Shown here piece after piece: positions 15,001 through 18,000 of a DNA stretch of 25,966 nucleotides. Position numbers: made by a program. Numbering within the stretch: the stretch's first letter is position 1; every line of letters starts with the position of its first letter. Location: positions 1 to 25,966 of the forward strand of contig JBBQRQ010000075.1 in the NCBI GenBank assembly GCA_038214755.1, written 5' to 3'. This DNA comes from Verrucomicrobiota bacterium. GTDB lineage: Bacteria; Verrucomicrobiota; Verrucomicrobiia; Limisphaerales; CANJXF01.

Positions 15001-18000
15001 CCGCCGCTTCGCTCCATTTTTTATTTACGCCAGTCAAAAGCTTTCCATAAGTCTCAGCGACATCGCGCATCGAAGTCGGAACTTTTTCTGCGAACGCTTT
15101 TTCGACGAGTGGATTTAGTTTTTGGGCCACATTGGTCAAAGAGGAGATGACGGAAGCGGCTTTTGCAGAAAATTCGTTCGTCGAAAGCGCCGCATAGGCG
15201 TGCCACGGCGACCAGATTGGATGAAAGTTTTTTGCGGTGCCGAGCAAATAAGAATTCCACTGGCGGACAATCACCGGATTCACGTCGTCGGCTTGCACGA
15301 ACGAATAAAAAATTTCGCTCGGCCATTTTTCGACATCTAAAACTGCGACAAGGTAATCCGTCGTCTTCGCGCGAAACCGTTTTGATTGTTCTTCGCGCCT
15401 GGTATGGAAAGCGGATTGAAATTTTGCTTCGCGATTTTTCAATTCCTTTTCGAAATCGAGATACGCTTTGGCCGGTTGCGACGTGGCGCTTAATGGAACT
15501 TCGCGCTCATAACCGCCGGCAAATACACCGTAGAGCGAGTAATAATCCTTCGTCGGAATCGGGTCGAACTTGTGATCGTGACAGCGCGCGCAACCGACCG
15601 TCAGCGCCTGCGTGCCGCGCATGACGACATCAATCCGATCATCAATAATGTCGTGGACGACTCCGAGAAACCGCCGGCCGAGAGTGAGGAAACCCATCGC
15701 GGCGAGCGAATCACGATCCGCGTCGGCCAACTGATCGGCGGCAATTTGCAGTTTGAGAAAGCGGTCGTAGGGCATGTCGTCATTCAGCGAGCGAATCACC
15801 CAATCTCGATACGCAGACGAATGAATGAACTTCGTCTCTTCGCGACCGCCATAGACGTAACCTTTCGTATCAGCGAAACGCGCGACATCGAGCCAGTATC
15901 GCCCCCACCGTTCGCCGTAACGCGGCGAGGCGAGCAAGCGATCAACCACTTTTTCAAAGGCATCCGGCGATTTATCTTTTACGAACGCTTCTACTTCTTC
16001 AAACGTCGGAGGAAGCCCGGTTAAATCAAAACTGGCGCGGCGAATCAGAGTTCGTTTGTCGGCAACTGGGGATGGTTGAAGCCCTTTCTCTTCCAACTTC
16101 GCCAAAATAAAATTATCAATCGGAGTCTGCGGCCAACGATTGTTTTTTACTTTTGGAAGAGGGGGATTTTTAACCGGCTGAAAAGCCCAATGGCTTTTGG
16201 CTCTCGCGGAATTTGGGGAATTGAATTTTAAATCTTCAGTGGAGTTAGTCCGTGGATCAGGCGCGCCAGAATTGATCCACGCGACAAAATCTGCAATTTG
16301 CTGATCGTTTAATTTGCCCCCGGCTTTCGGCGGCGGCATTTGCAAATCTTCGTTTTTGTAACGAATCGCTTCGATCAACCGGCTCGCTTCCGCATTGCCG
16401 GGAACAAGGGCCGGTTTTCCAGACTCTCCACCTTTGAGAATTCCTTCTTTACGGTCGAGGAGCAGGCCGCTTTTCAGTTTTTCCGCTTCGGCGCTGTGAC
16501 ATTTGTAACAACGTTCCGCGAGGACTGGCCGGATTTTCGTTTCAAAAAACTCGAAGTTTTCGTTGGCGCAAAGTTGTTCGACGCTCGCCAAAAACAGCCG
16601 CGATATCGCGAATGCGAAACAAATGAAACGTGCTGTGCTTGGCTTGAGCATGGGAACTCTGCCAAGGATAAATTATTCGTGCGAAAATTGAAGGCCAATC
16701 AATCGCAGCAACCAACATTTTTTCCGATGGATTGAAATCAAGTGTTTCCCCACTGCGGATTTTCCATGAAGGCGTAGCAAACCAAATGGCAAATCGCCAT
16801 CTGCGCATCTTCGACTCGTCCGTAATGCGTGTCGTTAATGACGAGAGTTTGGTCCGCGATTTCCGCCATGCGGCCCCGTTTGGCTCCGACCAGCGCGATG
16901 GTTTTCAAACCGTTTTTCTTCGACCATTCGAGCGCCTTCACGCAATTGGGTGAATTGCCGCTGACGCTCAGAGAAAGAACCACGTCGCCTTGGCGTCCAT
17001 AATTTTCCAATTGGCGGACGAAAATATCTTCGTAAGCGTAATCGTTTCCGATGGCGGTCATCCAACTGACATTGTCGTTGAGCGAGAGGACGCGAAAACG
17101 TTTGCCGGTTTTATCCGAAGCGCCTTTGCCAAGGTCGGTGGCGAAATGCGAAGCGTTGGCCGCGCTGCCGCCGTTGCCGAAAACAAAAATCTGCCGGTCC
17201 TCTTTGAGAGCCTGCTGAAATGTCTTGATGATCGTCGCGACGCCTTCAACCGGGATGGAATCGAGCGCAGCTTTTTGAGTTTTGAGGTAATCGGAAATCC
17301 AGTCGTTCATCGGCGCGAGTTTAATTGTGGGGCACATGAATACAAGTCTCGCCGAGAGCGGTGTCGCGACACGATCTTTTCCCCGCGCTTGACGCGACTT
17401 TCTCCTTTGTTAACCTGCCAACGAAATGAATTTGAGCAGCTTTCGATTTAGCGCTTTCTGGTTTGGCGAATATTTTATCGCCAACCTGCGCTAGGCTGCG
17501 TTTGATTTAAACACAACCCCAGCCGCAGGTCGCACCTGCGGTTTTTTTTGTGACCTGCGATTAGAAAAATATGATCATTGTTCTCAAGCCCAATATTTCG
17601 AAAAAAGACGAAGCCGCCGTGCTCAGGGAAATCAAAAAGCTCGGCTACAAACCGCACGTCATGCGCGGCGTCGAGCGGACGGTCATCGGCGCGATTGGCG
17701 ACGAACGGAAGAACCACACGCTCGAAACTCTCACCGCTGTTTTTCCGCAGGTCGAGAAAGTCATGCCGGTGCAGAAACGTTACAAGCTCACCAGCCGCGA
17801 AGCGCACAAGGGAAATTCCACCATCACTGTTCGTGGTAATTTAATCGGTGGAAAAAAAATTCAAATCATGGCCGGGCCGTGCTCGGTCGAAGATGAAAAA
17901 CAATTGCTGACCACCGCCCATTCCGTGAAAAAAGCCGGCGCAACCATTCTTCGCGGCGGCGCATTCAAGCCGCGCACATCGCCCTATGAATTTCAAGGTC

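Follow-up and report, generated by a model that had tools for sequence, protein, structure and literature searches.

Before the genes for DAHP synthase, ilvB and leuA, the genome of a Verrucomicrobiota bacterium of the order Limisphaerales carries three leaders that are likely to be classical ribosome-mediated transcription attenuators, leaderless or near-leaderless and native to this order. We have little doubt that the leaders work as attenuators, a reading that is backed by conservation, residue specificity, folding and covariation. Each combines an ORF with many codons for the end product of its pathway, a terminator, an antiterminator, mutually exclusive with the terminator, that shares sequence with the ORF's end, and sensing codons placed as in classical attenuators. 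From these features we infer the start sites, the translation of the leaders, the stalling, the switching kinetics and the direction of regulation.

In the proposed mechanism, a sigma-70-type promoter would start the RNA at the AUG or GUG of the leader or 0-3 nt 5' of it, and a ribosome would load at the RNA 5' end without a Shine-Dalgarno (SD) sequence. With charged tRNA in ample supply the ribosome would reach the leader stop codon and cover strand 2, the terminator would form and the gene would be off. Under shortage of Phe, Tyr or Trp (DAHP synthase), Val (ilvB) or Leu (leuA), a ribosome stalled on the sensing codons would break helix 1:2, leaving strand 2 free to capture the 5' arm of the terminator and permit readthrough. 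A leader that is not translated would fold into 1:2 and 3:4, and transcription would terminate.

Three leaders in one genome

The window, by which we mean the whole 25,966-nt contig analysed, holds the aromatic leader (Table 1). The locus (17389-17549) comprises a promoter, a 22-codon ORF rich in Phe, Trp and Tyr, alternative hairpins and an intrinsic terminator, and the DAHP synthase gene follows. The peptide is MNLSSFRFSAFWFGEYFIANLR* (five Phe, one Trp, one Tyr), with the sensing codons F6, F8, F11, W12, F13, Y16 and F17, the final one at 17474-17476. Transcription most likely starts at G17423, which would give a 3-nt 5' UTR, and the latest option is the A of the ATG. In the minimum-energy fold the protector helix 1:2 encloses the sensing codons (z -3.3), and the terminator folds with z -4.5 (0/200 shuffles). 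The promoter at 17389 was not listed in a generic promoter scan of the window and agrees with the E. coli consensus at 8 of 12 positions, and an Rfam E-value search at the window's leader returned sub-threshold, terminator-like matches only. Besides the regulated gene, no DAHP synthase was found in the genome; PF00793 has one further match, a 276-aa open frame that is presumably KdsA, and a PF01474 profile search of the genome gave no match.

Table 1. Features of the DAHP synthase leader in the window, and positions of the ilvB and leuA leaders on other contigs of the same genome
Feature	Position	Strand	Basis or detail
-35 box TTGACG	17389-17394	+	sequence
Extended -10 TG-n-TAACCT	17408-17416 (TAACCT 17411-17416)	+	sequence; 16-nt spacer
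Predicted transcription start	17423-17426	+	canonical spacing after -10 box
Leader ORF, 22 codons	17426-17494	+	ATG 17426; stop 17492-17494
Region 1:2, protector (anti-antiterminator)	17436-17499	+	GCAGC 17436-17440 pairs with GCTGC 17495-17499
Region 2:3, antiterminator	17484-17530	+	fold: ACCTGCG 17484-17490 pairs with CGCAGGT 17524-17530
Region 3:4, intrinsic terminator	17521-17549	+	CCGCAGG/CCTGCGG stem (17523-17541) and T8 tract
Class I-beta DAHP synthase with N-terminal ferredoxin-like domain (regulated gene)	17571-18587	+	PRK08673, TIGR01361 above cut-off
SIS/GmhA-like sugar isomerase, divergent upstream gene	16738-17310	-	TIGR00441, below cut-off
ilvB leader	contig C1: TTGACC 34723, ATG 34759		sequence; spacer 17, TAATTT, 7 nt to ATG
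leuA leader	contig C38: TTGACC 27968, GTG 28004		sequence; spacer 17, TATTAG, 7 nt to GTG

Of the 26 residues in the ilvB leader peptide 6 are Val, and of the 22 in the leuA leader peptide 7 are Leu; a terminator follows each leader. Among the three predicted -10 boxes, that of leuA (TATTAG, without the final T) is the most doubtful. The initial annotation had described attenuators at these three places, and a promoter, a residue-rich ORF and a terminator are indeed seen at DAHP, ilvB and leuA. A scan of the genome led from 3562 promoter-like starts, 1583 of which open a short ORF, to 22 with a terminator, among which only these three leaders join a TTGAC promoter, a residue-rich peptide and a matching biosynthetic gene; it replaces an earlier genome-wide terminator scan that was too permissive (474 candidates). 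The ilvB and DAHP leaders, which had been reported as the only ones returned by such a scan, are found again, and the leuA leader, previously read by hand only, is now returned as well. Inspection by eye in this genome found no leader ORF with terminator before cimA, trpE, a second trpE/pabB-like gene, hisG, lysC, pheS, thrS, trpB or pheA; for lysC this covered only the 206 nt up to the contig end, and for trpB and trpE, which sit behind other genes, it covered only their own upstream regions within the operon.

Conservation and residue specificity in relatives

For DAHP synthase we assembled the upstream DNA of 45 of 47 matches in 61 genomes and of the best 80 of 540 matches from a collection scan, which gave 112 distinct loci; the ilvB set consists of 49 of 58 matches plus 5 in-order loci from a search of the class (54 loci) and the leuA set of 30 of 32 matches, and all three sets include the genome studied here. 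Three rows (L006, L133 and L183) come from an unpublished genome (G009), and no conclusion rests on them. Leaders were called without regard to amino-acid content, by a rule that asks for a promoter followed after 4-13 nt by an ATG or GTG and 15-45 codons. By this rule a leader is present at 88 of the 112 DAHP loci (18 are without one and 6 are too short to judge), at 52/54 ilvB loci and at 27/30 leuA loci. The conservation noted earlier in 4 of 5 relatives for both the DAHP and the ilvB peptide thus holds in much larger sets, and it extends to leuA, for which relatives had not been checked before.

Each leader is enriched only in the residue or residues of its own pathway's product. Phe, Trp and Tyr make up 24.7% of the residues in DAHP leaders, 0.9% in ilvB leaders and 5.0% in leuA leaders (proteome 8.8%); for Val the corresponding shares are 2.7%, 26.6% and 7.0% (proteome 6.8%), and for Leu 8.7%, 9.2% and 30.1% (proteome 9.9%). 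At least four aromatic residues occur in 84 of the 88 DAHP leaders (fewer than four in 4/88), and Phe, Tyr and Trp are all present in 70; at least four Val are found in 51/52 ilvB leaders and at least five Leu in 27/27 leuA leaders. The peptides range from 16 to 33 aa, typically 22-32, and indels within the leader ORFs are mostly of whole codons (alignments, by eye). The promoters of the DAHP leaders have TTGACG in 67/88, TTGAC followed by any base in 85/88, TAnnnT in 82/88 and a 16-nt spacer in 69/88.

Loose matches to a promoter with a short ORF are numerous, as the 1583 in this genome attest, and leaders of this kind might be suspected of being short ORFs that lie beside promoters and terminators by chance. 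We give this explanation practically no weight, because order-wide conservation, residue specificity and covariation (described below) refute it, and because the same blind rule finds no Val-rich leader in any of 35 ilvB loci from other orders of the class.

Folding, covariation and the modelled switch

The untranslated DAHP leader is predicted to fold as protector helix plus terminator (z -4.8). To model the switch, we folded the RNA 3' of a ribosome of assumed footprint length codon by codon, before the 3' arm of the terminator is made. With the ribosome at the last sensing codon, the predicted sequestration of the terminator's 5' arm still stands at 0.86 (F17, DAHP), 0.99 (V16, ilvB) and 0.91 (L15, leuA), and with the ribosome at the stop codon it is 0.18, 0.01 and 0.05, respectively; the DAHP profile of this genome is non-monotonic, with a bump of 0.71 at L21. 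The family means from last sensing codon to stop run from 0.77 to 0.23 for DAHP (69 loci) and from 0.83 to 0.09 for leuA (21 loci). For ilvB (43 loci) the mean is only 0.42 at the last Val or Ile, since this codon is frequently part of strand 2; it is 0.73 six codons earlier and 0.04 at the stop. The initial annotation had left antiterminator folding unmodelled; in the model the antiterminator of each of the three leaders weakens once the ribosome moves beyond the final sensing codon, as an attenuator would require. In the complete RNA at equilibrium the terminator dominates, for ilvB and leuA at any ribosome position (in a run that was one base off frame for these two), which implies that switching must be co-transcriptional, as in known attenuators.

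The alignments contain 51/52 ilvB, 27/27 leuA and 53/88 DAHP leaders, the DAHP rows having been chosen for a clear terminator. In the antiterminators, 88.0% of cells are paired for ilvB, with 7 pairs showing two-sided changes against 2.0 in shuffled alignments (0/500), and 96.3% for leuA, with 4 such pairs against 1.3 (5/500); in DAHP a 6-bp core is 91.4% paired (53 sequences) with weak covariation, 63/500 shuffles reaching its pair count; all these shuffle counts overstate significance, since the structures were drawn from the same, related sequences. A second DAHP antiterminator helix, as drawn, is unsupported (45% paired). The protector helices are paired in 90.4% (leuA), 84.0% (ilvB) and 76.6% (DAHP) of cells, and the terminators in 96.6% for leuA and 100% for DAHP, the latter in the 53 sequences preselected for a terminator. 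A strict fold rule for a U-tract terminator was passed by 69/88 DAHP, 43/52 ilvB and 21/27 leuA leaders.

A different route to regulation can be imagined, in which the leaders serve general translation-speed sensing, translational control at the start of the gene behind them or an RNA switch bound by a protein or ligand, and the residue bias is a by-product of RNA structure. Peptide conservation is in part RNA-driven, as the motifs AVG, CR and LR at the C-terminus coincide with strand 2, yet such a by-product would hardly enrich each leader solely in the product of its own pathway. Codon use points both ways, since the DAHP leaders favour TTT (257 of 310 Phe codons) but Tyr is specified by both of its codons and Val and Leu by several. 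Terminator-less variants occur, as this route would allow, but the modelled switch point tracks the last sensing codon in all three leaders, and at gathering score Rfam has no match, riboswitches and T-boxes included, in the six loci searched (L001, L008, L126, L138, L176 and L188), just as the window's leader gave none above threshold. We therefore regard these routes as quite improbable and retain ribosome-mediated attenuation as the preferred reading.

Position of the leader start relative to the promoter

The leaders are very likely leaderless or near-leaderless, with a predicted 5' UTR of 0-3 nt. In this genome the gap from the -10 box to the start codon is 9 nt for DAHP, 7 nt for ilvB and 7 nt for leuA, in agreement with the 6-9 nt first proposed, and among relatives it lies at 6-9 nt in 84/88 DAHP, 42/52 ilvB and 24/27 leuA leaders, within a full range of 5-13 nt. 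Canonical spacing translates these gaps into a predicted 5' UTR of 0-3 nt in 83/88, 42/52 and 24/27 leaders, respectively; where the gap is 9-13 nt, as in part of the set, short 5' UTRs of about 1-7 nt are expected in place of a strictly leaderless RNA. Most GUG starts lie 6-7 nt past the -10 box (33/38 in DAHP and 18/22 in leuA), as expected if the G is the +1 base, and ATG starts mostly lie at 7-9 nt. The weakest link is leuA, where the -10 box conforms to TAnnnT in just 8/27 loci. We also anchored the loci on the terminator alone, with no promoter required. In this promoter-blind set a TTGAC-type box lies 33-44 nt 5' of the start in 77/81 DAHP, 53/54 ilvB and 26/26 leuA loci, against 25/390, 11/270 and 7/130 control windows, and none of 156 leader starts is preceded by an SD 4-mer. 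As a prediction, the leaderless or near-leaderless start of the initial annotation is borne out by these box positions and by the lack of SD 4-mers.

Promoter-abutting starts are a genome-wide habit and are not peculiar to the attenuator leaders. Crude self-trained gene calls (3175 genes, 73% coding) gave 2039 gene starts, and TAnnnT was counted 96 times at a gap of 6 nt against 11-26 at gaps of 11-44 nt; for the 1373 first-in-unit genes, gaps 6-10 hold an excess of about 127 (9%, a figure that is probably too low), and the excess of SD motifs is about 45. Members of the Verrucomicrobia are described as SD-scarce in the part of PMC10783764 drawn on here. In Table S4 of the GeneMarkS-2 study, likewise used in part, 5 of 17 Verrucomicrobia stand in group B and the other 12 in a later table of three columns, a split that leaves none in the leaderless group C (PMC6028130).

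This scarcity of SD sequences, in the genome and in the phylum, would also suit real attenuators whose leader ORFs lie on normally leadered RNA from a promoter farther upstream and are initiated independently of SD, and a generic promoter scan gives a weak promoter-like match at 17204-17232. We consider such an arrangement unlikely, as the TTGAC box keeps its fixed distance of 33-44 nt in 156 of 161 loci with differing upstream neighbours, and the gap stays within 5-13 nt in spite of peptides of 16-33 aa. In the window the upstream gene is divergent, and the leader thus receives no readthrough from a neighbour on its own strand. Moreover, in family f66, from outside the order, the DAHP gene has an SD sequence but the leader has none (6/6), starting 7-12 nt after the -10 box (by eye). 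A start at or next to the leader codon thus remains our preferred prediction.

Distribution and history of the leaders

The Val-rich leader precedes ilvB in 5/5 further in-order loci. The aromatic leader was found at 6 of 20 out-of-order DAHP loci, all belonging to f66. By eye, seven in-order DAHP loci (L006, L101, L106, L117, L119, L123 and L124) have kept the promoter without an intact leader, and conservation of the promoter therefore does not depend on that of the leader. In three of them (L119, L123 and L124) it is the DAHP gene that starts right at the promoter, and a 9-codon remnant survives in L106. The leuA of our genome is of the TIGR00970 type, and 28 of the 29 relatives without this type carry a TIGR00973-type gene; 25 of these 28 genes have the same Leu leader in front of them. 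One Leu leader before two distantly related leuA types means that the cassette outlasted a change of coding sequence or was re-attached after it, and its occurrence before both types within the order argues that the leader is native. Import of the leader together with an actinobacterial/yeast-type leuA is rejected on the same count.

Within the leader set, the ilvB and leuA leaders match each other's profile models (42/52 and 18/27 at E<10, best E about 2e-6) and hardly match the DAHP leaders. Genome-wide the cross-match is marginal, with E 0.043 one way and the leuA leader not listed by the ilvB model at E<10, which makes a shared origin of the ilvB and leuA leaders no more than suggestive.

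Taking these patterns together, we tentatively put forward a joint reading that is possible rather than probable. The attenuators of Limisphaerales would have arisen independently of those in actinobacteria and would be modular; the ilvB and leuA leaders would be one cassette, duplicated and retuned, and the leuA coding sequence would have been replaced behind a fixed Leu cassette. The aromatic cassette would be older, present in another order, and repeatedly deleted, leaving the DAHP gene promoter-abutting. The setting would be an SD-poor lineage in which promoter-abutting starts serve as a main initiation route.

Significance

The mechanism is textbook, its leaderless variant is already published, and current views are unchanged. 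What the present leaders add is the extension of ribosome-read amino-acid attenuation to an abundant environmental order of Verrucomicrobiota. New are the order-wide ilvB leader family, the Leu cassette that stands before either of two leuA types, the leader losses that retain the promoter, and the genome-wide leaderless signal. The approximately 200 natural variants of three unannotated leader families can be used for Rfam and for gene annotation. The findings suggest that new attenuators can arise easily in SD-poor bacteria from start codons beside promoters, and that leaderless initiation in Verrucomicrobiota has received too little recognition.

Comparison with known systems

The enterobacterial attenuators trpL, pheL, leuL and ilvL/ivbL have the 1:2, 2:3 and 3:4 architecture and the logic by which stalling leads to readthrough; their leaders are SD-led and have a real 5' UTR, and Rfam holds Trp, Leu, Phe, Thr and His leader families. 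The leaders described here follow the same three-helix scheme but are without SD and, by prediction, near-leaderless. All attenuators of Corynebacterium glutamicum were reportedly found to be leaderless by Neshat in 2014, and attenuators across bacteria are said to have been surveyed by Lopatovskaya in 2010, which may bear on novelty. In the literature searched, with subscription journals mostly outside its scope, we found no report of leaderless attenuators in Verrucomicrobia, Pedosphaera or Limisphaera, and the main text of PMC4833913 does not mention Verrucomicrobia.

The closest parallel is C. glutamicum, in which leader peptides precede aroF (aroR, F-Y-F), ilvBNC, leuA and trp (trpE) (PMC4046766, PMC3890552, both in part), and the ilvBNC leader lies 1 nt from the transcription start and forms three hairpins, an anti-antiterminator, an antiterminator and a terminator (PMC11857589, in part). 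As far as these parts of the sources extend, the target genes and the cognate-residue peptides are the same as ours. The differences are the phylum, the length of the peptides (typically 22-32 aa here against 15-16 for its ilvB), the presence of Phe, Tyr and Trp in the DAHP leader, where aroR has F-Y-F, and the trp leader, of which we saw no counterpart by eye in this genome.

Most leader peptides of Streptomyces lividans (ilvL, leuL1/2, trpL1/2, thrL and metL) are transcribed leaderless according to 5'-end RNA-seq, and its ilvL has a Rho-independent terminator, as our leaders do (PMC8079986, in part); the C. diphtheriae ilvB leader is also transcribed leaderless (PMC5784534, in part). In the passages on which we draw, the actinobacterial leuA leader is without a typical terminator, whereas that of Limisphaerales has a strong one. 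A Gram-negative precedent is Sinorhizobium meliloti, where the trpL/rnTrpL attenuator RNA begins at the leader ATG (PMC7298713, in part); there trpL senses Trp only, upstream of trpE(G), in contrast to the three pathways here. In mycobacteria, the M. tuberculosis ilvB1 attenuator uses terminator/antiterminator logic (PMC13236596, in part), and leaderless poly-Cys short ORFs are described (bioRxiv 10.1101/834739, in part). Both share with our leaders a sensor that consists of ribosome stalling on a short upstream ORF, but the poly-Cys ORFs act on the translation of the next gene, whereas the leaders of Limisphaerales would act on a terminator.

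Promoter-abutting starts beyond the three leaders

Across the genome under study (G000), we find that start codons abutting promoters are common, with a peak 6 nt past the -10 box pattern TAnnnT and often a TTG -35 core at a spacer of 16-17, and that Shine-Dalgarno motifs occur mainly before operon-internal genes. By eye, such starts occur at numerous small genes resembling toxin-antitoxin members, and also at serS-, fur- and pheA-like genes. At ilvB loci from several other orders (L206-L240), a TTG -35 element and a -10-like box precede ilvB itself, whose start lies 8-15 nt past the latter; the whole class may thus make use of short 5' UTRs.

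Attenuator candidates, variants and remnants

On contig C158 we observed a promoter-ORF-terminator unit that, from its sequence, is a candidate fourth attenuator in this genome. Its ORF contains an F-W-F motif and the gene behind the terminator appears MFS-like by eye; the unit is perhaps drug- or stall-responsive.

Among the DAHP synthase upstream loci of relatives, the aromatic leaders of L013, L019, L028, L039, L065 and L115 have a weak or absent terminator, so control there may have moved to translation or to Rho. Shortened leaders with an intact promoter remain at L094 and L104 (16 codons each) and L106 (9 codons), and are apparent intermediates in loss of the attenuator. For leuA, the distance from leader stop to gene start ranges from 81 to 321 nt among relatives, and in G000 this spacer holds a palindromic repeat element.

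Features located in this part of the analysis
Feature	Location	Strand	Basis
TTGACC-17-CATTGT promoter, 11 nt, 42-codon ORF, strong terminator, transporter-like gene	G000 C158, promoter at 2084	-	sequence scan
Palindromic repeat element, about 190 nt, between leuA terminator and leuA start	G000 C38:28130-28326		
Promoter-abutting small ORF, 65 aa, then frameshifted PemK/MazF-like fragment	window 18629-19130	+	sequence; Pfam

Downstream of the DAHP synthase gene

The small ORF in the window has a GTG start 6 nt past TAAATT, and the fragment that follows it matches PemK/MazF at a Pfam E of 0.03, which is below the cut-off; together they probably represent a decayed type II toxin-antitoxin pair. 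Degenerate copies of the DAHP synthase 3' end (window 19130-19236 and about 20460-20540) are also found here, on either side of small inserted cassettes, and several thrS fragments on contig C42 follow the same pattern. The arrangement looks as if elements had inserted again and again at the 3' ends of genes, duplicating the end.
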